A stretch of DNA of 64,000 nt, from the NCBI GenBank assembly GCA_008632985.1, contig QPGO01000134.1:1-64000 (forward strand), in the 5' to 3' direction. Origin of the DNA: Psammoneis japonica. Its lineage: Eukaryota. Shown here one piece after another: positions 1 to 27,539 of the stretch. The notes below the pieces were generated by a model. It was not told the origin of the DNA. It saw nothing but the letters and a program-made list of their open reading frames with translations, and did no database searches. The stretch's first letter is position 1. Each line of letters begins with the position of its first letter. Made by a program: the position numbers and the translations under genes.

Positions 1-439
1 CTTGAAAGTGTTAATTTGAGAATTGGGAGGTTAATATGATGTAATGTTGAATATGATAGTCATTCAACCAAATTCAGAGTACTCTAAGTCCTCACTGTAA
101 CCGTTCATAAGTAACGGCAAGCACCATACAACATCCACTGCAGCTTGAGATGACTTGATTGACAAAAAGGACAATTGTGTGTGGGAACCGAGAAGAGACC
201 CGATCAGCACATCGCTGATCCGGGGAACTTCTAAAACGGCCCCTTGAATGTCTACAGCAATGCGCCAGTTAAAACACACATGTGTCAGAGAGCGAGGGCA
301 CACACTGTCATGGAGCGTGCGCGTGCCTGTCTTGTCCACTCTTCCACTCGTGGTGCAAGAAACACACACACCATTGGAGCCACTTGGCTCAAACTCAAAA
401 CTGGATGCATGCGAAGAAGGGAGCGCAGACATTGGGAAG

Positions 440-1215
440 AAACCCTCAACTCCAATGTGGTGCCATGCAGCGAGCGTCAATCCGCTCAACAATGTGTGGT
501 GTGCTCGCAGCACTGAAACAACCCTGTTCTTGGTGCGGACTTGTGCAATTCGAAGCGGGCCACTGAAAGCTCAAGCTTCCAGCTTCGACAGATTTGCAAA
601 CTCAATCAGTGCATCTTGTCCATCTGGACAATTGCAGGAATGGTGCTTTGCATTCTGTCCTTGTGCATTCTTGTTGACTGGCACTTGAGGGTTGGCTTGA
701 ATCGCAGCAAGATGGGGGCAATCCTCAGCAGATCCAAAATCATGTCATGTTGGAACACCAGAGCTCCACTTGAAATGCCCACAGACCTTGAGTGGAAGCA
801 TTGCAGTGCATGAGATGCAGTGGCAAGGGCATTGTCCACTGTCCCTTTGGCCTGTTGAACATTCAAAGGAGGGTCGGCAACAACCACAGTGCACAAAACA
901 TTGGCTGCGGTCTGGTGCATTCATTCAGAGAGACAGCATTGGCTGCAGGATTGCGAGACATTGTCAGAGCAGCAATGCCCATGCCCACTTGATTCAGCAA
1001 CATTTGAAACTCCCAACCAACAAACTTGCCGCCATTGTCATGGATGCATCGATTTGGTCCAGGACAATGAGCTGATCAAAGGTTGCAAAATTTGTTTGCA
1101 ACATGCTGAGAAATCTTGTTGTCAATGCGCGCAAGCTTGGTCAATCCAGCAAAGGCATCAATGCAGGTGAGGGCACTGAATTTGATCTCTTGAACTTGAG
1201 TTGGAATCTTCCAGG
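440..1215 (-). mobile_element. Decayed Ty3/gypsy element, integrase core and C-terminal part (left fragment, split by the copia insertion)
   Basis: Minus-strand translation resembles a gypsy integrase: W-KIPTQVQEIKFSALTCIDA...CIHDNGGKFVG...MHQTAANVL...VDNALATASHAL...GALVFQHDMIL. It has stops and frameshifts and is TpA- and CpG-poor. The left end is approximate. Confidence 0.8.
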
Positions 1216-1491
1216 TGACAGAAAATGAAGGCAAATGGCAAGAATTCAAACAATGACTCCTTGCTGCTGTCTAAATGGCAGATGAGTCTCCGCTCAGAGA
1301 CCGTTGCAGGAGCCGAAAGACGTGTGAGTCGGTGTGATCGGGCTGCTGTTGTTGTTCTTGTGAGCCTTGTGGCTTGAAAGCAAACTGCATCGCGCGTGAA
1401 CGCGCGGAACTAAAGCACACAAAACTGTGCACGGCAAACTAAACAGCGCGCGACACTTCGCGCGCACCCAAATCCTGTTCAAATCCTGTCA
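1216..1491 (-). repeat. 3' LTR of the copia element (TpA-mutated copy)
   Basis: Colinear with 8045-8320, without indels and with 13 substitutions. It is preceded on the element strand by a purine-rich tract. Confidence 0.97.
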
Positions 1492-4400
1492 CTCCCCAGT
1501 TTGCTTGAGGAGCCACAGAAACAGATTCGACTTCGGATGGAATGAAGTTCCAGAACATGAGGGGGTGGAGAAGGTCCCAGATTTGGGAGCAACCCCAATG
1601 CTTGCTGAGAATGTCAGCAGGGTTGCGGGAGCCTTCGATGAAGTGGAGCTCAAGGCAACCAGAGGCAATTGCCTCGCGCACACGGTGGAACGACAGTGCG
1701 GTGTGTCGCTTGTGTAACTTGGAGTGCGGGATGGTGGCACTGTCTACAACTGACTTGTTGTCACCAAACATGTAACTAACGTTGCGGATCGGGACACCAA
1801 GGCAGCGCAGGGTGATGCGCAGGTCGACAATCTGCTCAACACAAGTCCTTGCGGCAACAAATTCAGACCCGCAGGTCGCAGTCTCCACGGTGGCTTGTTT
1901 CTTAGAGAACCAATCAGCCGGGAATTTGTTGAGGAAGTGGAGCATTCCCATGACAGAGCGTCCGGTGAGCATGCAATGGCACAAGTTTGCATCGACGCAG
2001 TGGGTGGCAGTGACGAACTTGCCAAGGGGCGGTGGAGCGTCCTTCGGGATCATCTCTTCTGCTTCACCACACACGGAATGCATCCATTCACAGGCCGGAG
2101 CAGGGAGATCCGAATGGTTGGGCTCTTCCGTGTGAACGCGGAGAGCACCGTGTCGCATCTTGGAGAGGTGCCCACAGACGCTTTGGCACGATCCAAGTGG
2201 CCTTGAGGGGCGCAGCTCGGAAGCTAGAGAGTGACATGACGGCCGTGGCAATGTCAATTCGACCAAGGGACACTGCCCATTGGAGTGAGCCAACAAGAGA
2301 CTGGAACTTGTGAATGCCATCGGGTCCCAGCAGTTCGGAAGTGTCCAGTTCGGGGTGGTCACCCTTCTCTAGAGGTGACAGGGGTTGGTGGCAGGTTTCT
2401 CCCCAAACAGTCGGGCACAGCTGTCGACCATGCGCTCGATGTACTTGCGCGGAGACAGGCACAAGGTTCCGTCGGGTTCCCGGGAAAAGTCGCAACCCAG
2501 ATGGAACTCAATGGGTCCCGTGCCCTTGAGCTTGAACTTGTGCTTTTCTGTGAGAGTGTCGACGAAAGATTGAGGGTCCTTCATGGCAATGGCAAGGTCA
2601 TCCACATAAACGGCAATGCATTCACAGTGGTCGCCGTTCCTGCGCATCCAAATGTTGGGTTCTGTGCGGCAGGGGAAGAAGCCTTCAGCTCGCAGGCAGT
2701 CGGCGAAGCGCTCGTGCCAGCGGAGACCGGAGCTGCGCAGTCCATGCAGTGCCTTGTGGATGACAAGGATGTGTCCTTCGAGTTTGCCGAACTCGGGTCC
2801 AGCTGCAATGTAAAGCTTCTCCTTGGTGGTGGCTTCAAGGTGGGCATTGCCAATGTCGGTGGCCCATGTCTCCAACTCGTTGAGTTCGGCCAGGAAAATC
2901 ATCAGCCGAAGGCCACGGAGGGAGACTGCTCCGGAGTGGACACTGTCGACAGGTACGTCCGTGAGGTGCCCGTCGGCTACGAGTCGTGCCTTGTGGCGAC
3001 CGTCGTGTTTCACGTCGTACACTGGGTGCACTCGGATCTTCTTGTGTCCCGCAGGAGGAGTGGAAGACTTGAAGGGCCCGCAGTCATGGAAGACTTCGCA
3101 TTCGTCGAGTTGGTCCATCTCGAGATTAGTTGCATCTCCCCACTTGCGGTTGCCGTTGTGTTCGTCTGGTGACATGGCGTGTTTGTAGTTCCGGGGAACT
3201 TCGCATCCATGCTTGCAGCGAGGTGCAGTGCGGAAGGAGCGAAGCTTGGCTTGGTTGGCCATGCGAAATAGCTTCTTTTGGTGCCTCGCGATGGTGCGGA
3301 ACCGCTTCCAGCCATCCGTGTCGAGGAGTCCATTCTCTCGTGCATAGATGGCACAGGTGACAGGGTCGTCCTTGGCGATGATGGCAAGAGGCTCGGACGT
3401 GATCTCCCCACTTTCCCATTCAAGCATGATGTTGTAGCTGGAGCCTTTCCAGGTTGGGTCATGAGGCTTCAGAGGTCCTTCGTGTGACACGATGCATCGA
3501 AATTTCCAAATGGTGGTGTCTTCGTCTTCTTGCTCAATGTGATTCATGATGTCATTGCAGGCAAGGACTTCCTCGCATTCGTCATTGTTGACAGAGCAGA
3601 CGAACTTAGTGAGCTCGGGATTGCCGTTCACTTTCCATTCGTGGTCTTCGATGGCCTTGACGATGCGAGCTCTGTGGCGTTGTCCGTCCTCTTGTGGCTG
3701 CATGAGGAAGGTACGTCCAATGATGTCTTGCGGATCGAAAACTGGCATCTTGGGTGTCCTGATCTCCCCATCAGGAGAGTCGACGGGGTTGTCGTCATGG
3801 CGAGATTTGATGATGGGTTCAGGTGGCTCCCCATCAGGAGGATCAAGATGCAGGTTTCGAACGGCGGGATCGGGGGCAGCAGAGCGGACGTTGGACCGGT
3901 GGAGGATCTTCTGAGTCTCGTCAGATAGAATCTTGAAGGTCATCTGGTGGCCGACGTGCTCAGCAATGCCAACGAAGCGTCCACGCAACTCACGGGATTC
4001 GGACGGCCAATCGGAGTCATCGAGGTGGAAGTGCACGGGTTCCCACCAGTGAAAGCGAAGCAATGGGCTGATGTCCAGGGTGGAGCCAGTGAGAGTCTCG
4101 AGGGGCATGCGCCAGTGGAGACGTGGGGACGCTGCATGGTTGAGTGTGAAGCATGCGCACATGAGCGCCAGCAGCCATGCATGGGCGGGCGAACCAAAAC
4201 GATCCATGACAGTGTTCGTCATGCGCTTCACGGTCTGGTGTCGACGCTCGGCAAAGTTTTGGTGTTGCTGGTGAGGCTCACTTTGCCAGCTAGAGATGAA
4301 GAGGGCACGTAGGATCCCGAGCACTTTGTTGCTGATCTCAACTTGAGCACGGTCGCTGGTGAGTTTGGATGGGGCGCCACGTTCGCGGATCTGATCCTCG

Positions 4401-7105
4401 AGTGTGTTGACAAACTCTTTGTCCGTCTCAGTGCCGCAGACGTCAGTGACGGTAGACTCGGTGCCAACAAACAGTTGGGCGCTGGTGCAGCCAGAGTCGA
4501 CGGCCGGGGTGTCGGCACAAACGGTGTCAGTGGCGACAGGCTCGTTGCGGCGGTGCACATTAAGGGCGGGGTTGGGTGATTTGCAGGCCTTGCGAAGGTG
4601 TGTGCCGGCGGGCATGCGGGCGCACTGCGTGGTGCAGTCAAAAGTACGATGGACCGTGTCGGCAGGTGGGAAGCCAAAGCAAGGCCGAAGAGACTCGAAG
4701 GGGGGGTCCTTGGGCTGTGCAGTGCGCTCCGGAGGTGGAACGGCATCGCCCTGGGGGCCAATTGCATGCAGATGACACTTGCAGAACACGTCGTCGTTCG
4801 GAATGAGGTGATCATCGAGGGCGGACGCGTGATCGGCAGACAAGGAAGTGGACATGATGGTCTCGTTGACAACGACACGATGACGGCAGTTGCCGCATTC
4901 GTCAAATGGGTTGGCAGTGGGATCGTCCTGCAGGTCAGAGATCGCGTCGCACCACTGGTCGTCGTCAGTGACAGAGTGATCGAGGACGGAAGGGTCCCAT
5001 GTGTCATCACCGGTGAGGATGACATGGGGCAGGGTGTCCCATTCGGCATCAGTGTGGGGTCGCATGGCAACACAAGGCAGGCCAGCCTTGATGTCAATGG
5101 GGATGACACAGCCATCAGGAGTGGCAATGCGTTGCAAGCCGTTGGGCACCTTGACAGAGCGGTCGTTGACATCCTGTTTGCACCATTCGAGCTGGCCGCA
5201 GGAATGGATGGTCTTGCCCTTGCCCGTGCATGCGCACTGATGGAGGATGGCGATGACGGGACCACGCTGGGTCTCAATGACGGCACCAGCGGTGACAATG
5301 GGGATGTCCACCAATTGATGATCGTCAATGCCCTGAACATCGACTTGGCGAGAGGTGCGTGCAATGATGCGAACGTCGTCGCCAGCAATGCCGCCGTTGG
5401 CCCCACGATCGACTAGAGCGCCAGTGCGTGTGGAGCGATGAGCAGAGGCAGAGTGAATGACATTGTGGTTGTCAACGCGGCGGCAAGTGCGGCCGTTAAG
5501 TTCTGTGTCATCTGCAGAAGCTGGCGGGGCAGAGGAAGCGGCGGATGGCCCCGGTCGACTGGCATTGGGGGCTTGGTTGGGAGACAACAGACGTTGCAGA
5601 TCACCGGGTGGCAGTGGCTTGCGCTTGGTGAGGTGCGCCAGGATGGGATCATCCGAAGTGGTGTCCACATGTGGAGCGGAGTCACCAGAGTCAGCAGGAG
5701 TCGTGTTGGACAAGTTGACATCACCGTCACTCCCAAGGCGTTGGTCGTGAAGGTTGGCCGCAACAGACTCATGGTGGTTGCTGGCTCGCGGGTTGCGGGG
5801 AGGTGGACAAGAATGCTCAAGGATGATCGCCTTGGAGGAATCGGGCAACGAATCCCAGAGCCGTTGGTGGTCGGGAGGGAGACGTCTCCATTGGACACCG
5901 GTGAGGCTGGGACCGCGGGTGCAGGCAGCATTGGCTTGAAGGACGTCAACGTCGCTGTCAATGTCACAGAACACATCGTCGGACGGTTCCTCGGAGTAGA
6001 CGGCGTGTGCGTGTGTGGCGCGTCGGGGAGCTCGAGGTGTCGTCTTGGGTTGAAACGTGCTGTCGCACTGAGCTGCCGCGGAGAGGAGCAAGCCACAGCA
6101 TTGATCGCATGTGAGGCTCTTGCCACTCTGCGTACGATGCTGATCAGCTTGGTTCTTGACAGCACGGAGTTCCTCGACAGGGTGCACGGCATTCTCGAGC
6201 ATGACGCGCTTCTGTCCTTCAGAGAAGTGGTCGCTGGCCGGGATGAGTGCCTCGTGCTTGCGCAACTGATCTTGCCAATGAAGGATGAACCCGTGGGTCG
6301 GACCTTTCCAAGTGCCATCACCAAGACGCGCGGTGGTGAGGTGCGTGAGCAGGGTGGAGGACTCGACAGATGCGCGGGTGGAGGCAAGCGCGCACTCAGA
6401 CAAGGAGCGGCAGACGGTCTGTGCGTCAGAAGACCCCACATTTTCGCGAATGAGAGCCTTGCCCTTGTCGGTGAGAAGGATGCATTCGAAGACGGCGAAC
6501 ATGTGCTTTTGCTGTTCAGCAAAGAGCAGTTTGTCTTCAGGGCTGGTCGGTTTGTACGACGAGTCTAGAACGCACTCGACGTCTTGGGCACGGGCTTGTG
6601 CCACAAGTGAGGTGTGCCAAGTGTGCCACTGCTTGTCGGATTTGAGAGCCGTGAAAGCAGTGGGATCACGCTTGATGCCTCGCTTGAAGTCCCGCACTGG
6701 GTCGCATGCCTTGGTCGGGTTGGTGACATGTGGAGGTGCAAGGGGTGAGCTGCCGATGGACACAGAAGACATGCAGTCGGGGCTGAGGCGGTGGGCAAGG
6801 AACTCGTCATGCGTGAACAAAGAGGAGTCATTGGCAACGTCAAGACCTTTGTGTGCTTTGACAATGCACAGACTGACCAGTGCTGCTAACATGTTCTTGT
6901 AACCACGGGGCAAAGGGATCACATTGGTGCCGTTGTCGCACTCAAGCGAGTCGATTTGGGACGGCATGAACGTGAACAGTTCCTGATGCGAGTCCGTGCC
7001 GTCTTGGGCCAAAGCCAAACGAAGAGGACTCCCAGCACCTTGGGCAAGCACGGTTCCAACCACGTGCTCGAAACCATCGGTTTGTTGCTGACGAGTGAGA
7101 ACCAT
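1439..7105 (-). pseudogene. Copia gag-pol polyprotein (gag, aspartic protease, integrase, RT, RNase H), hypermutated with about 2 frameshifts near 2380 and 2190
   Basis: Motifs: ALVDRGANGG (protease), SDRAQVE and QNFAERR (integrase), HKARLVADG, DIGNAHL and YVDDL (RT), SKKQATVETAT, FGDNKSV and NPADILSK (RNase H). Covered by ORFs 2369-7135, 2088-2495 and 1439-2362. Confidence 0.95.
1492..1503 (-). promoter_or_regulatory. Polypurine tract (plus-strand primer site)
   Basis: The element strand reads ...AAACTGGGGAG immediately before the 3' LTR TG. Confidence 0.7.
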
Positions 7106-8030
7106 GGCAGACAAAAGTGGTGTCAGGACAATCAATTCTGGCTGGGAAGAGAAGGTGGACTCGAAACTTGGGTGAGAATGGACTTGACTTGAAACAGACT
7201 TGACTTGAAATCTTGAACTGTCTTGAAATCAGAAGTCGCCGGGCTTTGTCATCCCGTTCGTTGTCAAGTGCTAAACTTCCCATCCGGTCCGTAGAGTTGT
7301 GCCGGCACGTCCGAACCCGCAGCTGGCGGCACTTTGGGTTGCTTGCGAGCGGAGCAGCGGGTTGTAAACCCCTGCAGGCAAGCTGACTAGAGGTGGACAA
7401 GACCCCTGAACCGTTCTCATTTTGTGTCGGTTGGATTTCCCGATCAGGCTGGCCAGTTGACGCAGGCGTTGGGCGCTGTGGACGAACGAACAAACGCGGG
7501 AAAGCACCCTCGCCCCAACGCAGGCTGCAACCACGGCTGCTTGCTCTCACAGTCATCCTTGTGGACCTAGTAGAACTGTAGAGCACCAGCAGTCCGGGGT
7601 AGATCAGGTACAATGGACTCGGTGTGCTTGTAGAGTGGTGGCAAAACCGCAGTCCGAAGAGTGGGTACAGGTTCTTGGCCGTGAAGATGTGTATATATAT
7701 ATATGTCTTCAGCGACGAAGATCCTTGAATATGTAGGGTTCTTGACCGTTAACCGATGAATAGGTATATCAAGGGATGAGGATCAAGGATAGACTTGGAT
7801 ATGACCGTTGAATGTATGTCTTCAGCGATCAAAGGTAGTATAATCAATCCAGATATCCAGCGGTAAGGAGACTTGACGGTGACGTTAACTTCCTGCCGAT
7901 GCCCTGGTATTGAATGCGCGTAGACTTGCCGATGTATGTAGGATATATACGGAGGTCCACGTAGAATTGAAATAGCGTCGTTGGTAAATCAACGACGACG
8001 ATGGCGGTTGCTCAATGGGTTGACAATGAG

Positions 8031-8044
8031 CAAGACTGTTAATC
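8031..8044 (-). promoter_or_regulatory. Putative primer-binding site complementary to the anticodon arm (5' half) of tRNA-Asn(GUU)
   Basis: The plus strand reads CAAGA-CTGTTAA-TC and abuts the 5' LTR. There is no TGG (anti-CCA) type PBS. Confidence 0.6.
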
Positions 8045-8320
8045 TGACAGAAAATGAAGGCAAATGGCAAGAATTCAAACAATAACTCCTTACTGCTGTC
8101 TAAATGGCAGATGAGTCTCCGCTCAGAGACCGTTACAGGAGCCGAAAGACGTGTAAGTCGGTATAATCGGGCTACTGTTATTATTCTTGTGAGCCTTGTG
8201 GCTCGAAAGCAAACTACATCGCGCGTGAACGCGCGGAACTAAAGCACACAAAACTGTGCACGGTAAACTAAACAGCGCGCGACACTTCGCGCGCACCTAA
8301 ATCCTGTTCAAATCCTGTCA
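8045..8320 (-). repeat. 5' LTR of the copia element (TpA-intact copy)
   Basis: 276 bp with TG...CA ends, followed by the CCAGG duplication. It retains 15 TpA sites. Confidence 0.97.
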
Positions 8321-10060
8321 CCAGGGCTCAGCAAGAAGGTCAACTGCTGCTTCTGACCAGAGCTGACAGTGTGTGCTTGACGTTGTGGCAATTCTCTGCA
8401 TCCAGGACCAAGTTGCTTGAAATGTTGACATGCATCACAAACAAACTCATCACAACATCAATGCAATGCAGGGTGATGCAGGCAAGGGTGGGTGCTCTCA
8501 TGCAGATGTGTGACTCCACAATGGCCCAACACATGATGACAACAAGGGAGAACATCAGGCACAACAACACCGCTGGAACTCAAATCTTCCACACTCCAGG
8601 TGGGTCATTCAAATGAAAATGACAACAAATGAGAGGATGCTGGTTTAAGATCTTGGCCATGAATTGCTGAGGATTCTGCTGTTGCTTCTGATTCAACTGG
8701 GGGTCTTTGAACTGGGACTGCACAAACATGGAATGCTGGTGGGCTGTGGCTCAGGCAAGCCAAGAGTGCTTCTGCTGCAGTCATTGCCTTCATCTTGTTG
8801 AAATGCATTCTGACATGCGCCCAACCAGTGGAGCTGGCTCTTGCCTGTCAACTCATTGATGCAAGCAAGTGAAAACAAAAAGGTCACACATTGTGACAGT
8901 GGGTTGACTTGCGGCACCCAAAAACAAATGCAGTTGTGTGCAGCAGTCTGTGGAGGTTGCACGCAAAGGATGGCTTTGACTTTCTTCTTCTGCAGCTTGA
9001 CTCCATTTGGCATGAGCCAATGTCCCAGAAAATCCATCTCCTGAGCACACCATTTGCATTTCAACAGATTCACCTTCAAGCCATTCTCCTTGAGATGATG
9101 TGACACCTTGTTGAGACAAGAAAGATGAGAGTCAAAGCAAGCGTCAAAAGCGCCAATGTCATCAACACAGGCTTCAACATCCAAACCATGTGAAATCTTT
9201 GCAATGATGGACTGCACAATTCTGGAGCCAGCTTTAATCCCACAGCCATTCAACAGCACTGAAACCCACTGCAGGGAGCTGCAATTGTTGCTGGCTCCTT
9301 GCTTTCTTCATCCAGCTCCAAATCATGACAGAACATTGTGAGGTCAATCTTTGTGAAGAGCTTGTGTCCCGCTCTCCAATGCAGCACATCTTGAATCACT
9401 GGCAGAGGATGGACCATGCCCACTGCACACAGCCATCTTTCTTTGGAATGACTGCAGGTCCACATGGTCACAGTGCTCCCAGCTCCACCAAATGCTGCAG
9501 CTCCTTCTTGAATGTTTCTTCATTGGCTCAAGGAAAAGCAAAAGGTTTTGAATGACAAGGCACAGCATTTTCATCTGCTTCCAGGTGCACCTTTTCATGA
9601 GGTCAATGGCCCAGCATTCCATCAAACAGCCTTGAGCACTTCTCCAACACCGCCAGCAGCTTTGTCTTTTGTTCTTTAAGTCAAATGATCCAAATTTTGA
9701 ACAATGTCCAAAGGATCCATTGCTTCATGCTTGGCATCCAACACACAGCTGTCGCATCCGTTGTTGCAGCCACAACCCAACTCATCCTTGCAGTCTTCAT
9801 CAAACTCATCCATTTGATCTAGAGCCACACCAATTGCAGGACTTGGACCAATGGCAAGGTTCTGTCATTAGAATCTTGCGGTCTGGCCAGCACAGAGTTC
9901 TTGCATTGTGGTTCAAATGGGGTCCAATCTTGTCCAAGAAATCTCAACCCAAAATGATGTCATGCACACACGGAGCATCAAAAACATGAGCAACAATGCA
10001 GCCATCAACTCTTTTCATCTTGTTGAATGCTGGCAGCACAATGTTCTTTGTGTTGCCACA
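8321..10060 (-). mobile_element. Decayed Ty3/gypsy pol (protease, RT, integrase HHCC region), continuous with 440-1215
   Basis: IVLPAFNK...VFDAPCVHDIILG*DFL (protease), FTKIDLTM and EACVDDIGAF...GLKVNLLKCKW...DFLGHWL (RT), HHVLGHCG...CDACQHFK (integrase zinc finger). The reading frame joins across the duplication as EPW|KIP. Confidence 0.88.
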
Positions 10061-12965
10061 AAGCTGAAAATGCAATGAACAAGCTGTTCAACAATGTGAT
10101 TGACCACTCAGATGACATGCAGCACATCTGCTTCTGGCTTTCAGAGTTGCAAGATGTCATCTGTGAAGCAACAGGGAAACATGACGGTGTTGTTTTGGTC
10201 TTTGCACCAAATGCATCAGATGTTGCCCAGGTTGTGCTGGCACAACATTGGAGACAAGAAGCCAACTGTGGTGGGAAGGGTGCGCACAATGAATTCATTC
10301 CAAAAACAAAAACTTTTGTGAGTGAAAATGCTTGTGCAAGTGAGTTGATTGATTTGACATTGACCAATGCACAACAAAGAGAGAAGTCAAAAAGGTGACT
10401 CAGAAAGAGCTGTTTCCAAAAGCAAAATTCTTTGCCAAAGAAGACATGTCAAGTGGTCAAAAGGTGTCATGGCCAATGCGCAAGAATGCAGCTGGTGGCA
10501 GATTCAGCAAGCAGCAAGACTGGGCAGGAATGTGGGAAGACTGGGGGCAAAAAAGTGCATCTTCAGTGCAGTCAACACCAAAAAGGAACACCGTCACCCA
10601 GTCAATGATGAAGAATGTGACAAGTCACAAAAGTGCTGCAGAAAACATTGCCAAAAAGGTGTTGAAAATGATGCTGCCAACACAATGCTCTTTTGCACAA
10701 GTTGTGCTGACAGCAGAACAAGCAGAGGAAATCCATGGGCAAAAGCATGGCAGGAACAGAAAAGGAACAAGACAAAAAAATTAGAAAGAAGGGTGCTGCA
10801 CACCCATTGAAGAACCACCCTTTCCAACTCATGAGGACAAGACTGTGGAAATCATTGTGGGTGAAAAATTGGCCAACAAGGAAGCACGCACATGGCTCTG
10901 CAACAATGCACTGAAATTGATGAAGAGCGCTGTGGTGTGGAGAAAGTCAGGAATCAGCAAGGCTGCAGAGCTCCCTGTTGCAAACAACAAGGCTCTGGGG
11001 CTGTTGTGATGTTGGAAAACTGCTGGAAAATTGGGAAGCACAAGGCCATGAAGGACAAGAAGATTTGAGAGGGAGATGTTGCTGGAGATGATGATGAGAA
11101 CAACAAAGAAACCCCGGCGCCTGTGTGCAACGCCAACCAAGCAAAACAGCACAACTTGTTGAGAGATGCAGGAGCACAGCAGTTCAACATGCTGTGTGAG
11201 GAGGTGAAGGAAGACAGGGCAAGCAAGCCAGGTGTGCAGCTCAACACAGGGTGCAGCAATGACAACAAGAAGAAAAGTGATGAAAAAGGCAAGAGTGCAC
11301 CAACCACCAAAAGAAAGGGCACAAAAGGTGGCAAAAACACAAACCAAGCTTGAGCTTTCTGGCAATGACAAGGACAACATGGAAGAGAAAATGGGAAAAG
11401 ACAACAAAGAAGAAGACAGTTCAAGTGAAGATGAACATGGTGCACAAAAATCCACACCAGTCTGGCAAAGGAACCGTGGTGGTGCCCATTGAAAGCCCAA
11501 AATGATGCACAACAAAGTGGTGAATTGGCAATCATTGACAACTGTGCACACAATGCATTGCACTGTTCAAATTGCACACAAATGCCAACACAAAATGTCA
11601 CAATAAAGTTGGTTTCAAGGGGGGCCATCAGCTTGTTTTTTTTTTCACATCTTTTCCGGGTTTTTCCACATTTTTGATGGGTCGTGACAGAAAATTCATG
11701 ACACAAGCATGAGTGACAATGACGACGTTCACGATGAGTGGTGAGTTGCAAAGTGTCACCTCACAAGGGACACTCATTGGTTTCATCATCGTGACACAGT
11801 GCAGATTGATTTGCGTGCTTTTGTCCCTCGTGCCACTGGGCCAATTTTGAGAGATGGCATGACAGCCGTCATTGTTGTGCTTTGATTGTGGTGCCTGATG
11901 CTCTCATTTTTGCATGCGATCAAACAATTTTTACTGGGACAGAGGGTGGGCACTTTGATGGAGAAAACAGGTGGCTGTTTCACAATGGGCAGACTGGGGC
12001 AGACCCCGTGGCAATGAAATGTTTGTCTGTCACAGTCATTGGGTTTTCACCATGCAAACAACTGGCCATCTTGAATCTGTCATGGTGTTAAATTGTCACC
12101 CATGAAACAGTTAAAAAATGCTGTGAGACACCCCACACGCGCTCTGATGCACCAGCCAGGGTGCACTGTGGCAAGGAAAAAAGTGCTTCTTTCCTTTTTT
12201 TGTTGACACTGAACCACTGGTCAAAGGGGTCAGCAAGCTCCTTCATTTCTGCCACAGGCAGTGGAGTTGATGCTTTTTTGCCCTCATCAAAGCTCTCCAA
12301 CTCTGTCATGCTGTCCAGTGTGGCGTCTGCTCCCAGTTGGCACCTGCTCCACACTCGCAACTGAATTTTCAGAGATGTGCCACCAAGATTCAACAGCACA
12401 GCACCTCTCCATTTTGACTGCTTCTCTGAGTTGCCCAAGAGCTGCAGTCACTTGCACCGACCAGTGCGAGGTTCGTTCTCACTGGCAAGGGCACGAGCGC
12501 AGAAGTTGTGCTTCTCTGGATCTCACAGCACTTGTCACCCCAGCTGCAAACGCGTGCATCATTTTCACCCCAGCTTCTCAGATCATCTTCCAATGAAGCC
12601 TTCTGAGGCAGCGGCTTCATGCTCTCGAGGCCCAATTGACATTGGGGCCCAAATGCTGCAGACTAGTCTTTGGTGCATGCGGCTGCCTTTCCATCTCCAA
12701 GATTGGGATTAAAAAAGGAGAGTTCTGCAGGAATCACAGCGAACATTGTCCCCACCACAGGGTGCGTCCGTTGCTCTCCAGCAGAAGTCCTTCCGCTGAC
12801 AACATTCCAAAGCACTGATGTTGTCGGCAAGCACCGTGCGGCGCAGCACTTGCTTTGGATGAGCACTTGAGAAGTCATTGGCAGGTGCTTGGGCACAACC
12901 TGGTTTTGCGAAGCAACAGCGGGAAACCAACAACAGAGGTTGACCGACCGTCAACCCATCCACGC
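10060..12965. mobile_element. TpA/CpG-depleted decayed repeat region with unidentified ORF remnants (probably TE-derived)
   Basis: Broken plus-strand ORF remnants (e.g. KELFPKAKFF...W...KRNTVTQSM) and minus-strand remnants at 11800-12960. TpA is almost absent. I do not recognise the family. Confidence 0.5.
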
Positions 12966-12982
12966 CAAGTAGATTTTTTTAT

Positions 12983-13547
12983 CTAGAGCCTGACAAGTGC
13001 CTCCACTCTGCGCGATGGCATGTCTTGTTGCGGTTTTGAAGGACGAGCAAGGACGCTGTTCGGAAACAAGTCACCGACGGCTGTGGCGTCATTGTGGCAC
13101 ACCTCTCGTTCTGCATCTGTGTAGAACTTGTGAAACGCTGCTTGTTTCATGGGGACAAAACGTCCTCTGTCTTGAGACAACAAATGCTCGGCCTCTTTGG
13201 TGACGCGTAGCAACTTGTTGCCATATGCCATATCCGCCAAGTTACCCAGCACAAGTGCGCCCACGACGATGGGTACGCCAAAACTGGTGGTGGCTTGCGT
13301 CCGGCAATTTGTGCCATGGTCGCTCCAGTCACGAGGGTTGCCCAAGCCGTCCCATAAATCTGCAGCGTGTCACGTGCTCTGGCTACTTGGACAGCCATTT
13401 GTACTTCTCTCTGGAGCATCATTCGTCGCGCAACTTCATCTTCAATGCTGGATCGAATCTTTTGAAACTTTGACGACCCTCCACATCGTCGTCTTGCTGC
13501 TGCCCAGTGCTTTGTTTTCCGACTTGCTTGCTGTTTGAACCTCCCAT
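12983..13547 (-). CDS. Plasminogen receptor KT (PLGRKT)-like membrane protein; two 1-nt frameshifts, probably assembly errors
   Basis: MGGSNSK N-terminus, then RRMMLQREVQMAVQVARARD...VPIVVGALVLGNLADMAYGNKLLRVTKEAEHLL, which resembles the PLGRKT family. Frames are restored by one extra base in a G run and one in a T run. Confidence 0.7.
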
Positions 13548-14281
13548 GATGAGCTGCAAAGCGCCACAGTCTGTGATGTGAGGTAGCGTGTACTCGTAGC
13601 GTTGGCCGAATCCAGAATAGGGTGATGTGAAGGTGTTTTGTTGTTCTTTGGCTATCGGCGGGAGCTGGCGCAGTAGAATTCGAAGCTGTTCGCCTGTTCG
13701 CGGGTCACCAAAGATGCGCGCAGTGAAGCCACCAGGCAGAATGGCATCCATTGATGCCGTATCATAATTACTAGAGAGTAGCTACTCTAGAGTGGCATTG
13801 TGGTGGTAGTAGAGAGTATAGCCATGAGGCACTCCTGCAAAAGTGCCGCACTCTAGCTCCAGTGGCTCTCTCGAGGGCGGTCCACATCACCTTTGACTTC
13901 AGTGAAAAATGATTTCAAGCTTGCTTGTAATTTCTTAGGACTGTTCCTTATGGACATTCGGTTATCTTCTTCTCATTTCATTCAGCATTACACGATGTCC
14001 TGGTTAATGATCTCCTTCTTGACTTTTAACCGAAGCAAAATTTCGTAGCATTGTAAATGCTCCAGGTAGAAACACTGCTGAAGGTACATGCATGTGCTCG
14101 TGAAGAGAGAATCGTCCATTCTTCGATCGCACCATCGTACCAGTAGTGCATCCGCCGCTGTCCAAAATGTCTAGACAATGTTACAAATGTACGAGTAGTT
14201 TTATATCTATTTACTTTAGAGTTCAAACCGGATAGGTTTGCCATGGAAATCCGCTTTTCGAATCATCGACGACTCTCCTCG

Positions 14282-16193: not shown

Positions 16194-18309
16194 AATGACA
16201 CAAGATGCCATGAGCTGATTCTTGGAAATTGGCATTACATTCCTGGTTTTTCACGCACGTCAGCGGCGATCAGAAGGGACGGAAATGGGAATTACGAATC
16301 ATCTGCAGCACACAGTAACTTTGAGTGCAGGTAGTAGAAGTAGTATGTAGTAGGTTTTATACCAAGACGAACCTATGTGGCGGATCGCGTTTTGATCAGG
16401 TGAAACAGAGTCGGTCAGGATCAAAGAGTCTCATATATTCGCGATCTCTCTTTTTTTCTCCCTCTCTCTACACCCCTCATGGGCAGTTTGAAAAAATGAA
16501 TGCGGCGAGACAATGCAGGAAAAAGCAAGAGGGAAACTGGAGTTGAATGCTGTAGCTCTATTCATCCTTGTCACTTGCACCAAGATTAAGGTCACGGCAT
16601 GCCCTGATATCACACATAAGAAGATAGATGACATGTTGTCGGTAGCGTAGCTAGAGGCGCTGCTGTATTATAGTCGTCTTTCCTTTACGCGATGCACGCA
16701 CAACCTATTTTGGGAGTGGACAGACGGATGGAAAAATTCTGGAGAAATGAGCGAGTCGAAAAGTCAAAATGCTGCAGCTGACCTCAAAACAAGGATGAAG
16801 TCGATGCATCCTGAATCATCAAGCAAGCAATCTACCCTCACTCTAAATCTCAGTGTGGAGATCAGAACAGGGCAAACCAGAGGCACCGTGGGAGCTGGCA
16901 CATGCCTGTGCTGAGTGGAGCTCCAGCTTGCTGCTTGCCATTTGAACACATGTGCCCTGTCTGTGTGTCATTGCATTTCTGCTCGGCCACTCATTGCAGC
17001 ACCTGGCAAGGTGGAGCTGCACAGCAGAAATGGTGTTTGGTTGACAATTTGCAAAGGGGAGGTCCAAACACAGCAAAGATGGCCACAGCTCCAGCAGCTT
17101 GAAGAGCGTTCAGCCATGACGCCCGTTGCTTGTCTGCACAACCTTTGTCTCTCACCAGCTCCCATCCATCACATCTGGCTGGGAACTCCCAGGTTCTCAT
17201 GTCTGTTGGGCAGCTGTCAATTGAAGCTCTGCCTGCCAAAACAGAGAGGCTTGTTGTCAAAGGCATTGGCAAGGTGTTCTGGGCACTTCAAGCCATGGAT
17301 GAAAGCAAAGCTCACATCCACAGACTTGTGTTGCTGCTGCTTCTGCACACCCAAAGCCAAAGTCCACTGGCTGGTGGTGCCACACAGTCTTGCCATGCAG
17401 CCTTTCCTGGAAACACCTCCAATTTTTCTCTTTTGAAAGCACATCAATGAGCAGGGGATGAAGCATTTTGTGTCTTGTGCCAGCCTTGCTTCCCATTGAT
17501 TGACACGTGTGAGTGCTCTTCTTCTCACATTTGAGCACAATGTGTTGGCAGCTTGCTCATTGAGGGTCTTGAGAAACTGATGCACAGCTTCTGTTGAATG
17601 TGACTGCCACTTGGAGCTGTCTTTTTCCACGTGCCAACCTTTTGACAAGCCTTTTAACAAGCCTTTGCCAGCAATGGCTTTGCATGGTGTCAGGGAGAAC
17701 ACCATGTTGACTGGCTGCACTTGTCTTGCTTGGTGTGAAAGAAGCACACTGTCCAAATCAAAGTGTCACCTGGGGTCCATCAAAGACTGTTTTGATGTCC
17801 TCTGCTGGCAGTTGTTGCCCCCCACCACTGCCCTCTGGAGGCACAACAGTTTGGAAACAAGTCAAGTCCAGCTGCTGCTGTCAGGGACAAGATGATGTGG
17901 TGGGACCACAACACCACAAGATGAACCTTGCAATGCCCAACCACAGTTCTCAAAGTCACACTTGGGGCCCACCAAAGACCACCAATGCCCTCTGCTGGCA
18001 GTTGTCAGGTTGGTTGGTGCTGTCATGGGGCCCTCATGCTCTGGAGGTTGGCAGCATCAGGTTCATTCTAAAATTGTCATGGCATTGTTTGTGTTCACAC
18101 CTGACCATGCACAAAATGACAACATTGTGCACCACTTCTGGTGTGCATGTGACCTTTGACACACAAAAAGCAAATGCAAAACAAACAACAAGAGTTGACA
18201 AAGGGTCCCCCTCCATTTGTTTTGACCTCAGCAAAGCACAAAAAAATGCACACACACTTGTCGCTGCCCATTTGGCCAAATTTGAGCAAAAAACAAACAG
18301 CAAATGACC

Positions 18310-19480
18310 CACCTCAAGAGCTGCAGCTGGACATTGCAAGGCAGATTTTGTGGTGTTGTGGCCCCATGTCACCTTGTCCCCAACAGAAGCAGACTTGAGC
18401 TTCCAAGTTCCAAACTTGACAGCACCAACAACCAACTTAACCACAGCAAGCTGAGAGCATTGGCAGTCTTTGGTGGACTCCAGGTGTGACTTCAAGAACT
18501 GTGGCTGGATGTTGCAAGGTTGATGTTGTGGTGTTGTGGCCCCATGATGTCACCTTGTTCTCAATGCCAGGAGCAGACTTGAGCTTCCAAACTCAAGAGT
18601 CCAAGGACCCCAAGGACAGCACACCAGCCAACCCAACAACAGCAAGCTGAGGGCATTGGCAGTCTTTGGTTGCCCCCTGGCATTGCCCCTGGAACTGTGG
18701 TTGGATGTTGCAAGGTCAATGTTGTGGTGTTGTGGCTCCATGTCACCTTGTCCTCAACAGAATGAGCAGACTTGACTTTCCAAACCCCAGAGTGCAGGGA
18801 TCCCATGATGGTGCCAACCAACCCAACAACTGCCAGCAGGTTGCACTGATGGTTTGGTTGCTGGTGGCCCCCATGCAACACTTCAAGAACTGTGGCTTGG
18901 TGCTGCAAGGTTGATCTTCCGACCCAACAACAGCAAGCTGAGGGCATTGGCGGTCTTTGGTTGCCCCCTGGCATTGCCCCTGGAACTGCAGTTGGATGTT
19001 GCAAGGTCAATGTTGTGGTGTTGTGGCTCCACGTCACCTTGTCCTCAGCAGAATGAGCGGACTTGACTTTCCAAACCCCAGAGTGCAGGGATTCCATGAT
19101 GGTGCCAACCAACCCAACAACTGCCAGCAGGTTGCACTGATGGTGTGGTTGCTGGTGGGCCCCATGCAACACTTCAAGAACTGTGGCTGGGGTGCTGCAA
19201 GGTTGATCTTGAAGTGTTGTGGCCCTGTGCCACATTGTGCCCAACACAGCTGCAGACTTGAGCTTCCAAACTCCAGAGTCTGAGGACCCCGTGACAGCAC
19301 CAACCAACCTGACAACAGCAAGCTGAGGACACTGGTGCTGTCTGGTGTGAACCCCAGGCAATGCTTTAAGAGCCATGGTTGAGCATTTTGCAAGGTCAAT
19401 CTTGTGGTGTGGTGGCCCCATGCCACATTGTCCCCAACAGCAGCAGACTTGAATTTCCAAACTCCAGAGTTGCTCATTCA
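18310..19480. repeat. Tandem array of ~195-bp units, with an inverted partial copy at ~17760-18055
   Basis: The anchor TGCAAGG recurs at ~18335, 18512, 18708, 18903, 18998, 19195 and 19388. The stretches 18630-18920 and 18921-19210 are near-identical. Confidence 0.85.
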
Positions 19481-22185
19481 AAGGTTTGACTGCTGAGTCA
19501 AAGCTGTGAAAAGGAATGTGCTGGGAATGCCAGAAATGTGGAGTTGTTTTGTTGCAGTGTCAAAATGGCTTGAAGAGGAAAATTTAGAAATTTGAAGCAG
19601 CACTTTAAAAAGGTTTCTCTTTGTGGGAGCAATGAAAAAACTGTGATGAATGGGGAAGCTTTCTTCCACATCACTCTGATCTAAAGTTCAAGCAAGAACT
19701 TATCCAGTGAGATGATTGGCTGGGATGAGAATTGCAAATGTGAGGTTCAGCTTTGCTGGTTGCATGCTGCACAGGTTTTGGAGGCTTGCAGCCTTGCCAA
19801 GCTTTCTTGTCATGAGTTGAGTCTTCATGGCCAATCTCATTGATGACTCAGTTGTTGCAATGTGGCACCACTCACCTGTGCTGACCTTTGCACAGAGTCT
19901 CAAAGTCAAGTGAGTTTTATGTTGCCAAAGCCTTGGTTGCAACTGCTGCTCATGGAGTCTGGGTCCAGAGGTTGGGTGCATGGAAAACAGCACCTGTCAT
20001 CTTTCTCTTCAACAAGCAAATTGTGAGCACCATCACTTGGACAAGCATGGCATCCAAACAACCCTCTGCAATCTTCTGCAAGAGAGACAAAACTGGTGCA
20101 TTTTCAGAGCAACAAAGAAGAGCTGCACAAACAGTGGACATGATTTGGTGTTCACTTGCAGAAATCCTCTGCCACAGCTGAAACACAGTGCAGCATGTGC
20201 AGTCACAGACTGAAACAAAAACCCAAAATCAAATCACAACCATGTTGGCCCAGATGACTTGGCACCCCAAAAAGTGTCAGCAGCACATTTGTTGTTGATC
20301 AACAGCTTTAATTAAAGTGGTGCTGAACAAAGCGCAGATTGACCCATGCTGTGATCTGGGTTAAGTTGGAGGACGACAAGCATTTGTGGCAACAGGAAGC
20401 ATGAATGATGACATGGATTAAAAATGACAACATGGAAATTGCAGGGGCTGCTTGACAATGTGAGTCAGGCTCCAGAGTGCAAATTGACATTGGACATGAT
20501 GAGGAAAGGACTCAAGTTTGCAGCTGCATTGTTTTGTCAAAAAGGGGTTTGATTTGATGACAAGTTCATGTCAAAAGGAGAGTCTTTTCATTGTTGTCAG
20601 CCATGCAACAAGGACACAGTGGGTTGTGACAGGGGTGCACCACTGTCATGAAAACAACAGATCAGCAGCTGAGTTGTGTGGTGCCCAATTCAACAAAGCA
20701 ACAAGCACGCATCAGAAACACTGAAAAACATGCAGTGGACAATTGGGCTGAAGATCTTCCAAAAAATGAACCAACTCTGACCAAGATGCCAGGCCACAAG
20801 ACACAAGACAAGACATTGCAAATCCATGACCACTGGAAAAATTGGTTGTGAGCCTCAAATGATGACTTTGGCAATGCCAGATTTGCAACTGAAAATGAGC
20901 CAGTGTCAGAACATCATTCAAAATCACAGCGGCAGCATTGGCCACCTTGTTTGATTTTTGCAAAATCATGACACCTGTGAAGGGTGCAATCACAGGTGCA
21001 AGAATTTTGATTTTTGCCTTTGTCTTCTTGTCAAGAGCATGTCACAGATGCACTTGGAGGCCTGGCTGATCTTTTGCCAGCAGCGCACCTCAGTGTGTGC
21101 AAGCATCAGCACCTTTTGAGTTGTCACAAAAGGTCCAGTCAATGTGACACTTGTTGCCAGATGATGGCAGCTCTGGCTGCAATCAGAGGCATTGTTGGCC
21201 CTGAAGCCAAGAGCAAAGAGTTGACACTTTTGCTTCCATGCTGTGATTGCCTTTGTCACTGTCCCTTTTGCTGCCAAGGCAGCTGGGCTGGCCACTTTTT
21301 GCATGTGGTCAAGATCATTGCAGTGTGCTGAGTGTCATCTTTTGATTTGCTTGTGATCCCTGGCAGAAAATGCAGGTGTGTGCTTGTTGACTCATGCCAC
21401 ACCAGCCATTGCTAACTTGTCTGCTTTGTTCAGGTCATTCAATGCTTTTGGGGCTTTCCCTCTTGCCAATCTGAAACAAAGAGCGTTCTTCAGGAGCTTG
21501 CTCAAATTGTTCTTCATTTGATTCAATCCACAGGAACATGAATTGCAGCAACCAAGAGCTTCTTCATCTCCCTTTTTTGCAGCACAGGATCATGGAAAAA
21601 GAAGTGATCTGGATGGAAATTGTCAATGCTTGCTAATTCTGGTGTTGCAACAAAGAGTGGCGCAGCATTTTTTTGCCACCAGATTTGCTGAGCAGAGTCA
21701 TTTTTTTCCAGCTCACACTGAAGAAACATCTTTGGATCTTTCAGAGCAGCACTTTGGTGTTTCCTTCATGACCTGCAAGGTGGTCACATCTCATGCTTCA
21801 GCAAAAGGCTTGTCACCTTTGTGTGCTGAATCACTCAGTGCAGCTTCTGTGCTGCTGGCTGCTGTTGTGGTGCCAGCATTGGTGACAAGCACAGAGAGAG
21901 TGTGGCAACTCTTTTGCACTGAGAGAGCATCAAGGGTGGAAGTGTGAATGCCTGCCAAGCTGCTGGTGTTTTGTTGAAAAAAATTGTGAAGAGTTTTGCA
22001 CAAATTTGACTCCTGGGCATCCACCCATCAGAGCAAACAAAGCTGCTTTCTGACATCTGCTGCTGACATTTTGTTGTAAAAAATTGTAAAGAGTTTTGCA
22101 CAAGTTTAACTCCTGAGCATCTGCACATCACATTTGACATTGATGGGCAACACTCCTGTTCAAATGTCCACAAAACTTTTTGTGC

Positions 22186-22186
<1 letters not shown>

Positions 22187-22245
<59 letters not shown>
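22187..22245. repeat. (AAC)n microsatellite, ~19 units
   Basis: Perfect trinucleotide run, seen directly. Confidence 0.95.
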
Positions 22246-23583
22246 ACCAGTGGTGCAATGCAAGCAAAGCCATGTGCTTTCATTTTGCTTCATTGAACTG
22301 TCTCACAATTTGATTTTGATGTTGCAATCAGGTGTGCACTCAGTCTTCTCTTTGCCAGCACTGCAGCCATTGGGGCAAAGCAAGCAAGAGGAACAAGCAA
22401 CTGGCAAAAACTCTAAAGAAGAGACTGAGCCCCAAGATGCAAAAGGAAGAAAAGTGCCCCCCACATGAGAGGAGAAGAAGCCTCTTCCTTGCATGCTCAA
22501 ACAACTCAACCAAAGACATCACTCAGCTGGCAGATGAGGTTTTTTGCTTTCAGATGTTGCCACAAGAGAGCCAGCTCTTTGACAACCATGAAGATCCAAA
22601 AGAAAGCAGCTGGCCTGCCAGGACTCATCCAACCACAATGGTGAAAACACTGCCAAATCTTGTCATCAGCTTGGTCAGCTCATCAAGACTTGGGCAATGA
22701 TGAGCCACAAAGACAACAAGCACAAGACAGAGCACACTGTTGTTGACAAGATGATTCCATGTTTGCTTGCTCTCCTCTCATTTTGTGCCAGAACATTTGT
22801 GGGCTGCAAATGCCATCGTCAAGTTGATCAGAGAGGTGTGTGATGAAGATGATGCTGATGGGCATTTTGTGACACTTGCACAGATGTCGGCAAGTCATGG
22901 GTTGGACGTGTGTGTGTGGGTGATGAGTGCCAAACACAGGCCAGAAGCCCACGAACATTGTGGATGTCCTTCTCCCTGACATTCATCATCCATGCATTGA
23001 ACATTTTATTGTCACGCTTTGATGGCCACTGCACTGAAGAGAAAGAAACAACGTCAGCAATGCGTGCATCTGATTCATTGGATGAACCCACCCCCACGCC
23101 GCCGTCCAGCAAAGCATCCAGCCAGTGGCTTCTAGTGTGAAAATTTTTGCGCACATGATGCATCTGGCTGTCATCCCACATGCTTTGATTTGGTCACATT
23201 GGATTCTCTTTGTTCTTTGTGAATCATCTTTTGCCATGTGGCATCCAGTGACAGAAGCAGATCTGGACAGAGTCTTGGTGGGAGGGAGTGTGGAGCACCT
23301 TTTGCATTTGGCTGACTGGAGTGACCACAGCGCACTTCACTTTGGAGATCACCTGCAGCACTCCAACCTTGGCGGACACGAGGGTGGCACATGGGAGCCA
23401 TCATTCATGAGTTGGAGAGTGAGTTCCAAGTGCAGCAGCAACAAGCCGAGGAGCTCTTGATGACTGCATTTTGGCTCAAAACTCTGCCAAACAACATCCA
23501 AACTGACTCCAGAGACAGCAATGCATCAGCGCTTCAGTGGCTTTTGGATGCTCTCGAGGAAGTTAGAATGGAGTCATGCTGTG

Positions 23584-23703
23584 CACAGACAGGTGATTTG
23601 TTCAATTGGCACTTTGGTTCCATCTTTTGCTCCCTCAGAGATTGCACAGACAGGTGATTTGTTCAATCGGCACTTTGGTTCCATCTTTTGCTCCCTCGGA
23701 GAT
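23584..23703. repeat. 61-bp direct tandem duplication
   Basis: GCACAGACAGGTGATTTGTTCAAT...CTTTTGCTCCCTC occurs twice. The internal differences are at CpG sites (AATTGG vs AATCGG, CTCAGA vs CTCGGA). Confidence 0.9.
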
Positions 23704-24064
23704 CAATTGGCATGTTCCCTGGAGCTGTTCAAAGGATGCGACCTTTGCACAACAAAGTCGAGAGTTTCTCCCACTGCCTGCCCAGCCATCGATTCCATCC
23801 AAGCCGATTCACTTGCCGCATGAAAAGCTTTGTCCCAGGGCACATTGGCAACTGAATCTCGAGGAAAATGAGTTGAAAAAAGTAAGGTAAGGTGGTTATT
23901 ACTAATGCTGTACTAATGGCTAGCATCTCTCTACTCTAGCTAGAGCGAGCAGGGTTTGAGTCACGACAGCTGTCATGGAAGTTGCGAGTGCTGTACCCGT
24001 GATGGCCAATGTCAAAAACTGCGCGGTAGACAGCGCGATGGCGGCGGGCGCTTCCAGAGCTAAC

Positions 24065-27000: not shown

Positions 27001-27039
27001 AAAACCACTGGCACTCATCTCACAAAGATGAGAAGTCTG

Positions 27040-27530: not shown

Positions 27531-27539
27531 GCCCTTCAG

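Follow-up and report, generated by a model that had tools for sequence, protein, structure and literature searches.

TpA-depleted blocks and a nested Copia element

The first 64,000 nucleotides of contig QPGO01000134.1 of Psammoneis japonica (assembly GCA_008632985.1, positions 1 to 64,000 of the forward strand), referred to here as the window, carry genes with few introns for DUF4116 repeat proteins, a Sulfotransfer_4 protein, a serine acetyltransferase and a GTPase, together with repeats from which the dinucleotide TpA has almost vanished. The stretch under study, positions 8321-12965 (4645 bp), belongs to an old repeat into which a younger Copia retrotransposon with long terminal repeats (LTRs) is inserted. 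It contains exactly 12 TpA, the figure that a preliminary description of the locus had reached by eye, against 318 expected from base composition and about 182 expected at the background density of 39.1 TpA/kb in the non-depleted part of the window (Poisson P = 3e-61 for 12 or fewer at that density). The nine TpA counted there in a single 60-nt line (14161-14220) were equally exact. The 12 remaining sites comprise six TTAA, two CTAG, two TTAG, one ATAA and one TTAC; the recount thus agrees that ten of them are TTAA, CTAG or TTAG, all of the form YTAR (Y, pyrimidine; R, purine).

A dinucleotide scan of the window defined six TpA-depleted blocks in which TG and CA are strongly enriched: 233-2978, 3270-7365, 8265-12980 (the focal block), 16707-23897, 26678-28269 and 44021-46010. 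Their main features are the following.

233-1210, minus strand: left part of the old focal repeat, with 2 TpA in about 1 kb
1211-1215 and 8321-8325, no strand: left and right copies of the 5-bp target-site duplication CCAGG that flanks the Copia element
1216-1491, minus strand: Copia 3' LTR, mutated, with 3 TpA left, all CTAA
1492-7567, minus strand: Copia interior (gag-pol) and proximal leader, hypermutated, with 38 TpA in 6.1 kb and CpG near 0.9
7568-8044, minus strand: Copia distal leader, spared, with 39 TpA in 477 bp
8045-8320, minus strand: Copia 5' LTR, spared, with 15 TpA and 20 CpG
8326-12965, minus strand: right part of the old focal repeat, with 12 TpA, CpG observed/expected about 0.25 and TG/CA about 1.8
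16707-23897, no strand: old depleted block C, with TA observed/expected 0.053, CG 0.12 and a right edge that is sharp at 23883
26678-28269, no strand: old depleted block D, whose left 870 bp are a decayed collinear copy of host DNA at 31125-31359 and 32149-32424
44021-46010, no strand: old depleted block E, with TA observed/expected 0.053 and CG 0.18

Across the six blocks, observed/expected ratios are 0.05-0.11 for TA and 1.35-1.87 for TG and CA, whereas the window outside them shows 0.57 for TA, 0.96 for CG, 1.22 for TG and 1.18 for CA. In the old blocks the corresponding values are 0.05, 0.19, 1.85 and 1.78. The depletion there is limited to TA and CG and the enrichment to TG and CA, the other 12 dinucleotides staying within 0.81-1.27. 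Block borders are abrupt. At the left end of the window, TpA occurs from 12 to 127, then at 232, 253 and 270, and next at 1272; at the right end of block C, a TpA-free gap (23564-23883) gives way to dense TpA beyond 23883. Short-read contigs from a public run match 8421-13000 with 0-2 differences per piece, and the depletion is therefore no assembly artefact. Loss of TA and loss of CpG occupy exactly the same blocks but differ in age: TA observed/expected is 0.05 in the old blocks and 0.11 in the young Copia element, whereas CpG stands at 0.12-0.26 in the former and 0.67-0.90 in the latter. Because CpG is lost from the old blocks and kept in the young element, TA loss came first and CpG loss later.

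The CCAGG duplication on both sides of the Copia insertion identifies 233-1210 and 8326-12965 as the two parts of one old element. Its right part retains a marginal RVT_1 remnant on the minus strand (8696-9307; 29.8 bits against a cut-off of 29.6). The inserted Copia has LTRs with TG...CA termini, and its gag-pol aligns to residues 1-1850 of the homologue P0002 between window positions 7105 and 1529. In a tblastn search of the window, Copia proteins matched no second Copia. The spared 5' LTR and 477-bp leader together (7568-8320) hold 54 TpA in 753 bp, and a contig of the same family matches 7641-7894 within the spared leader with no differences; the boundary between the spared and the hit zone falls between 7388 and 7568. 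The spared leader also contains a (TA)6 microsatellite at 7692-7703. The preliminary description was right in reporting three survivors in the 3' LTR, all of them CTAA, but this LTR lies at 1216-1491, outside 8321-12965. The element has an open frame of 1588 codons, which is no sign of function since a change of TA to TG or CA creates no new stop and removes TAA and TAG.

Loss of TpA as a mutation process

The two Copia LTRs provide a direct record of the change. They differ at 13 of 275 aligned sites, with no transversion. Twelve of these differences are a TA in the 5' LTR that reads TG (10) or CA (2) in the 3' LTR, the remaining one is CG to TG, and all 13 are derived in the 3' LTR. This LTR has therefore lost 12 of its 15 TpA versus one of its 20 CpG (P = 6e-6). 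As a control, six ordinary duplicate pairs in the window were compared; exchanges between TA and TG or CA make up 95 of their 1177 differences, about half of which are transversions, and the share of such exchanges differs sharply from that of the LTR pair (Fisher P = 2e-12).

The coding region bears the same mark. The pol frame contains 0.6% Tyr, 5.1% His and 3.3% Cys, compared with medians of 3.9, 3.5 and 1.0 among 120 homologues. Of 33 columns conserved as Tyr (in at least 80% of 40 homologues), 6 are still Y in the window copy, 15 are C, 11 are H and 1 is F, so that 27 of the 33 are changed, including columns in the reverse-transcriptase motifs. Other conserved residue types are each kept in at least 84% of their columns and most in more than 90% (for instance Ile 25/25, Gly 50/51 and Leu 52/56). 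Over the 72 Tyr positions of P0002, the window copy has Y at 10, C at 31, H at 14 and F at 4, the other 13 being other residues or gaps. Since TAY to TGY and TAY to CAY are exactly TA to TG and TA to CA, the tyrosine changes record TA loss. At the same P0002 positions, no more than 2 C and 4 H are seen in any of 16 related loci, namely the 11 lowest and the 5 highest in Tyr retention among 79 related Copia loci from metagenomes.

These 79 loci have TA observed/expected ratios of 0.35-1.02, none below 0.3, against 0.11 for the window Copia. One of them, a marine metagenome contig (L054:1-3974), reaches 0.20-0.51 in 1-kb windows; CG is 0.22 in its most TA-poor window, and its tyrosines are not among the eleven most depleted. 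Its source organism may share the same process.

Other copies in the same organism carry the TA state as well. Summed word depth over the Copia is about 63,000-175,000, versus about 55-85 for single-copy pieces, and the family is therefore very abundant. Variation among its copies in run X1 is dominated by transitions (228 sites of A>G, 207 of T>C, 218 of G>A and 173 of C>T), each transversion class numbering 16-35. Among the best 40 of 1049 variant rows, sites that are TG in the window copy are TA in other copies at shares of 100% (4155 and 4359), 90% (3168), 53% (2805) and 27% (1784), and sites that are TA in the window copy are CA or TG elsewhere at 84% (3018), 69% (1778), 50% (3186) and 25% (1773). 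The loss of TA is a mutation process and not a native composition.

This process also reaches DNA outside transposons. A tandem segmental duplication (24338-27545 and 28589-32424) contains a DUF4116 gene and the next gene, which in the second copy lies on the minus strand at 31413-32858, belongs to no Pfam family and is conserved in diatoms (59% identity to its closest named homologue, from Seminavis robusta). Together with this homologue, the DUF4116 and Sulfotransfer_4 genes mark the genome as diatom-like. In the first copy the DUF4116 part is intact; downstream of it, 790 bp are deleted and both TA and CG have been lost. The left 870 bp of block D were traced to their parent by a purine/pyrimidine-recoded self-comparison, in which most matches of 75-80% identity are noise; the two alignments to the parent score z = 12 and 29 against shuffles, compared with 0.1 and 1.3 for controls, and the right 720 bp have no parent detectable by recoded alignment (z = -1.6). 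The parent's 21 TpA have become 15 CA, 2 TG and 4 other dinucleotides, with none kept, and about 32 of 40 parental CpG positions, taken over two overlapping alignments, are now TG or CA. Block D is a local collinear duplicate, 4.6 kb from its parent, and not a retrocopy.

Duplication alone is ruled out as the trigger, in the manner known from repeat-induced point mutation (RIP), since ordinary duplicates and tandem repeats inside genes are untouched. The adjoining DUF4116 duplicates (24969-26623 and 29457-31117) are 93% identical with an ordinary substitution spectrum, and four other duplicate pairs show an ordinary spectrum too. What is hit is better described as a silenced, probably methylated, chromatin domain. 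Within a 715-codon open reading frame (ORF) that has no Pfam match, four tandem 306-bp units (41682-42899; 65-85% identical) show normal TA; repeats within genes are therefore no targets.

In block C, positions 18292-19560 hold a tandem array of about four units, each roughly 291 bp long and containing inverted repeats, every unit being free of TA and CG. Further along, 23086-23800 is a piece of a cytosolic 5'-nucleotidase gene (PF05761, E = 7e-6), frameshifted and carrying a short internal duplication; this pseudogene fragment lacks TA and keeps about 20 CpG. In two Pfam scans covering 155 stop-to-stop frames, all matches fell below threshold except those to RVT_1 (focal block) and 5_nucleotid (block C). 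One of the sub-threshold matches, to a CHY zinc finger at 19909-20103 on the minus strand (20.3 bits against a cut-off of 31.3), is probably an artefact of the conversion of Tyr to Cys and His, which enriches frames in these residues. More generally, dead repeats come to mimic long ORFs as TAA and TAG vanish, and the conversion of Tyr to Cys or His can mislead gene prediction and domain searches, as this match illustrates.

Context preference, chemistry and site of action

The surviving TpA are strongly biased by context. Over the six blocks, 48 of 93 survivors are YTAR, versus 253 of 1619 (15.6%) in the non-depleted window (Fisher odds ratio 5.8, P = 1e-14) and 17.9% of the 25,041 TpA in the 79 related Copia loci (P = 2e-13). 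The ten of 12 in the focal stretch depart from the same two baselines with binomial P = 4e-7 and 1.6e-6, respectively. In the old blocks, survival is 56% for TTAA, 31% for CTAA, 22% for TTAG, 17% for GTAA, 15% for CTAG, 11% for TTAT and at most 5% for the rest; ATAT, ATAC and GTAT have no survivors in any of the six blocks.

A model in which the adenine of each strand is lost at a rate set by its own 3' neighbour was fitted to the 16 contexts of the old blocks. It gave rates of 2.62 for T, 2.04 for C, 1.08 for G and 0.25 for A, improved greatly on uniform loss (likelihood ratio 77.7, 3 df, P = 1e-16) and described the counts well (goodness of fit P = 0.46). TTAA, CTAA/TTAG and CTAG are the last to survive because they are unfavourable on both strands. 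The old-block survivors also have A at +2 in 49% of cases versus a background of 28%, so that the resistant motif is nearer to TTAAA. The preliminary description, which had proposed a mutator with an extended context preference, is borne out in that survivors deviate from ancestral NTAN proportions (P = 1e-16). Its division into favoured TAY and disfavoured TAR holds in so far as the 3' base matters; the preference itself is graded, T > C > G >> A, with no clean pyrimidine/purine split.

Whether the base 3' of the A or the one 5' of the T matters cannot be told from survivors, but it can be told from products. In the old blocks, the products expected when the A of YTAY is hit (YTGY and RCAR) exceed background by 27.7/kb, against 10.9/kb for the alternative (YCAY and RTGR); CpG decay feeds the two product classes equally. 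Tyrosine codons in the young element point the same way. After a purine, where both strands are favourable, 15 of 16 are mutated (7 C, 8 H), and after a pyrimidine 11 of 16 (8 C, 3 H). With the rates from the old blocks, 15.1 Cys are predicted among the 26 changed codons of the young element and 15 are observed. The requirement for T on the 5' side of the adenine is strict, with no A>G outside TpA between the LTRs.

Taken together, the locus is probably best explained by a fast erasure of TpA in silenced DNA, acting on both strands and graded by the 3' base, followed by CpG decay. The direction of the change, its specificity, the order of contexts, the action on both strands, the sharp domain edges and the effect on a non-transposon duplicate are demonstrated by the comparisons above. 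Under this account, silenced repeats would undergo a very fast and specific transition of TpA to TpG or CpA (A:T to G:C at the TA step), in which either strand may be hit and the base 3' of the adenine determines the rate (T > C > G >> A); a far slower decay of CpG to TpG or CpA would then follow in the same domains, and both decays together would leave old repeats with hardly any TA or CG and with much TG and CA. As to chemistry, the adenine may be deaminated to hypoxanthine, which would then be read as G. Adenine deamination would be the simplest and most economical chemistry, as only transitions at the TA step occur. A thymine-directed modification (T>C on the opposite strand) would give the same pattern, and sequence alone cannot separate the two. 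An enzyme that deaminates chromosomal TpA adenines in silenced domains in the order TAT > TAC > TAG >> TAA, and thus a natural adenine-directed counterpart of RIP, is accordingly put forward as a tentative possibility.

Where the change takes place is a separate matter. Action on chromosomal DNA in silenced domains is favoured with modest confidence, because all 13 LTR differences lie in one LTR, both strands are hit, the edges are sharp, and block D and the 5'-nucleotidase pseudogene fragment are erased. In the Copia interior, 15 changes are on the sense strand (Cys) and 11 on the antisense strand (His), and Cys and His changes are interleaved in 13 runs by hand count, against about 13.7 by chance. 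Older blocks are more fully erased, and the old focal element has no spared end. Deamination would then work on the chromosome itself, within silenced domains that are probably cytosine-methylated, and often over stretches in which strand use is coordinated.

Several results weigh against this account. Ten of the 12 TA changes in the 3' LTR are on the plus strand of the window, where 6.1 are expected (P = 0.002), and block D has 2 TG among 17 products instead of 7.6 (P = 0.004); given this uneven strand use, a pure double-strand model based on context alone is incomplete. Such regionally coordinated strand use hints at an enzyme working on transiently single-stranded DNA. The chromosomal model by itself leaves the sparing of the 5' LTR and the 477-bp leader unexplained, and none of the 17 conserved tyrosine columns ahead of residue 1200 still has Tyr, versus 6 of 16 beyond it (P = 0.007). 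A reverse-transcription stage is a better fit to the spared 5' end, to the strand-biased 3' LTR and to the weaker hit rate in the last quarter of pol. With respect to context, the young element fits the 3'-neighbour model less well (goodness of fit P = 0.02) and has a different rate order (T 2.54, C 0.88, A 0.76, G 0.30). Counts per context are small, with 54 survivors in the old blocks and 39 in the young element, and the ancestral context frequencies were approximated from the window background and from related elements rather than taken from the true ancestors. Finally, the Pfam scans identified no origin for blocks C and E or the right part of D.

One rival is editing of single-stranded cDNA before integration by a deaminase packaged with the retroelement, so that copies arrive already mutated, an adenine counterpart of APOBEC3 restriction. 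In retroviral editing by APOBEC3G, the single-stranded state is briefest for the region just past the primer-binding site, and exposure of the displaced minus strand of the 3' LTR comes late. This would match an untouched 5' LTR and leader beside a 3' LTR that lost most of its TpA, the 10 of 12 changes there that read as A>G on the antisense strand, equivalent to the minus-strand cDNA (against the context model, P = 0.002), the falling hit rate in the last quarter of pol, and block edges that coincide with insert ends without leakage. Minus-strand-only editing, however, would yield His only, and the interior is hit on both strands, interleaved and near the ratio of the context model (15 Cys to 11 His, or 31 to 14). 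The erased block D is a collinear host duplicate and not a retrocopy, and the old focal element lacks a spared end. Overall, cDNA editing is a rather unlikely source of the pattern. Editing at the RNA level was also considered and is unlikely, as the 3' end of the same RNA serves as template for the U3 of the 5' LTR, which still has a normal 54 TpA/kb.

Another rival dispenses with a dedicated mutator. A mutagenic modification that silenced chromatin carries at the TA step (for example 5-hydroxymethyluracil from thymine, or a modified adenine) could decay to C/G-pairing bases as 5-methylcytosine does at CpG. TA and CpG loss in identical blocks, the placement of all 13 LTR differences, the CpG one included, in the same LTR, the more complete erasure of older blocks (0.05 versus 0.11) with survivors confined to the most resistant contexts, and the equivalence in sequence of A>G and T>C on the other strand would all be consistent with it; in dinoflagellates, thymine hydroxylation favours TpA. 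Its difficulty is the extreme rate it would require, about 30-fold that of CpG decay, with 80% of TpA and 5% of CpG lost in 276 bp and no other base changed, and we know of no such TA-step modification in diatoms; it is an improbable explanation. It is far less probable still that the survivor bias is not the mutator's own, the surviving TA having been created later from TG and CA or kept by selection. TG and CA are abundant, so G>A and C>T will create some TpA, and TTAA-type survivors do lie in A/T-rich surroundings (the excess of A at +2). But TG and CA contexts in the old blocks would give about 25% YTAR, and 32 of 54 are observed (P = 1e-7); the model fitted to survivors predicts the tyrosine-codon products of a different, young element; both LTRs carry the three CTAA that survive out of 15 LTR sites, which makes these three ancestral; and selection on survivors is unlikely in decayed repeats. 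A native poverty in TA without any mutation, for instance through avoidance of UA against RNases or of stop codons, may seem to agree with the low TpA throughout the window (0.57) and the 1588-codon Copia frame, yet conserved tyrosines have turned into Cys and His, the LTRs differ, and relatives and copies in the same organism keep TA. The LTR pair, the tyrosine columns and the related loci refute it, and its probability is negligible.

Comparison with known systems

In a full-text literature search that covered part of the journals, no description of TpA-specific repeat hypermutation in diatoms or other algae was found, and the process looks like a new variant of repeat-directed hypermutation. 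To our knowledge, targeted repeat hypermutation is known only as cytosine deamination, by RIP in fungi and APOBEC in animals; removal of TpA through A:T>G:C would add a third solution of a different chemistry, this time in a major marine algal group. The only enzymes acting on adenine in DNA that we know of so far are laboratory-evolved TadA variants, and the pattern would point to a natural one. If true, this would be the first natural DNA adenine 'base editor' in genome defence, and it would permanently inactivate transposons and dead duplicates without new stop codons or a lower GC content. The order of contexts (strict 5' T; 3' T > C > G >> A) would offer a concrete fingerprint for candidate enzymes.

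With RIP of filamentous fungi, the process shares dinucleotide-specific transitions confined to repeated or silenced DNA, the inactivation of transposons, a strong dinucleotide signature and, probably, the co-occurrence with cytosine methylation. The direction is opposite, however: RIP, which is premeiotic and depends on RID or DIM-2, turns CpA/TpG into TpA, whereas here TpA is the substrate and CpA/TpG the product. RIP was rejected as the process at this locus, as its C:G to T:A transitions should yield TpA-rich, CpA/TpG-poor DNA and the reverse is found (TA 0.05-0.11, TG/CA 1.35-1.87), with TA as the ancestral state in the LTR pair and at the tyrosine codons. RIP would also strike both copies of any duplication of sufficient length. 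Here, unlike in RIP, a 1.6-kb duplicate pair of 93% identity and the tandem 306-bp units have been left alone, and only one copy of the segmental duplication, and only part of it, is erased. Diatom DNMT4 enzymes are related to fungal RID; passages of PMC9998398 call their function unknown and mention no point-mutation process.

The likeness to APOBEC3 lies in the inactivation of retroelement copies, a short context preference, and the spared 5' end and strand-biased 3' LTR of the young Copia. APOBEC3 acts on cytosine in minus-strand cDNA only, giving G>A in the sense strand, whereas the changes here are A:T>G:C at TpA, on both strands in the Copia interior (the 3' LTR alone being biased, 10 to 2), and extend to a non-retro duplicate. 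Cytosine deamination of the APOBEC3 type was rejected on the grounds that 12 of 13 LTR differences and 26 of 27 conserved-tyrosine changes are A:T>G:C at TpA. ADAR enzymes, which hyper-edit double-stranded RNA, also convert A to G with U preferred 5' of the edited adenine. Their neighbour preferences are U>A>C>G on the 5' side and G on the 3' side; here the 5' T is strict and the 3' order is T>C>G>>A. Hyper-editing by ADAR was likewise rejected, because edits in RNA would reach both LTRs, and the 5' LTR has 15 TpA where the 3' LTR has 3. ADARs are called metazoan-specific in a passage of PMC3239186.

The decay of methylated CpG affects the same blocks (CpG 0.12-0.26 in the old ones) and has the same end products. 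It differs in being far slower here (1/20 CpG versus 12/15 TpA in the same LTR) and in that it cannot remove TpA. CpG decay is a second process, which leaves the TA loss unexplained.

Among deaminases acting on tRNA, DNA deamination by a trypanosome enzyme is cited in one part of PMC3239186, and amphioxus ADAT2 is reported to deaminate DNA (PMC10354150). Stramenopile-specific deaminase-SAM-Tudor proteins are proposed, in another part of PMC3239186, to act on short non-coding RNAs of the RNAi system. The trypanosome tRNA deaminase and the deaminase-SAM-Tudor proteins are leads only as candidates for the enzyme; none of the 11 window ORFs that were scanned has a deaminase domain. TadA and ADAT2-ADAT3 differ from the process seen here in that their natural substrate is the tRNA anticodon loop, and we know of no natural role of TadA/ADAT in mutating chromosomal DNA. 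The adenine they target follows U/T, and for TadA it precedes C. The target site of TadA is U33-A34-C35-G36, and a strict T on the 5' side of the adenine with C or T on its 3' side resembles U33-A34-C35, as the preliminary description had remarked of the UAC target, but as a resemblance only. At the present locus C at +1 is favoured, T there is at least as good, and G is tolerated.

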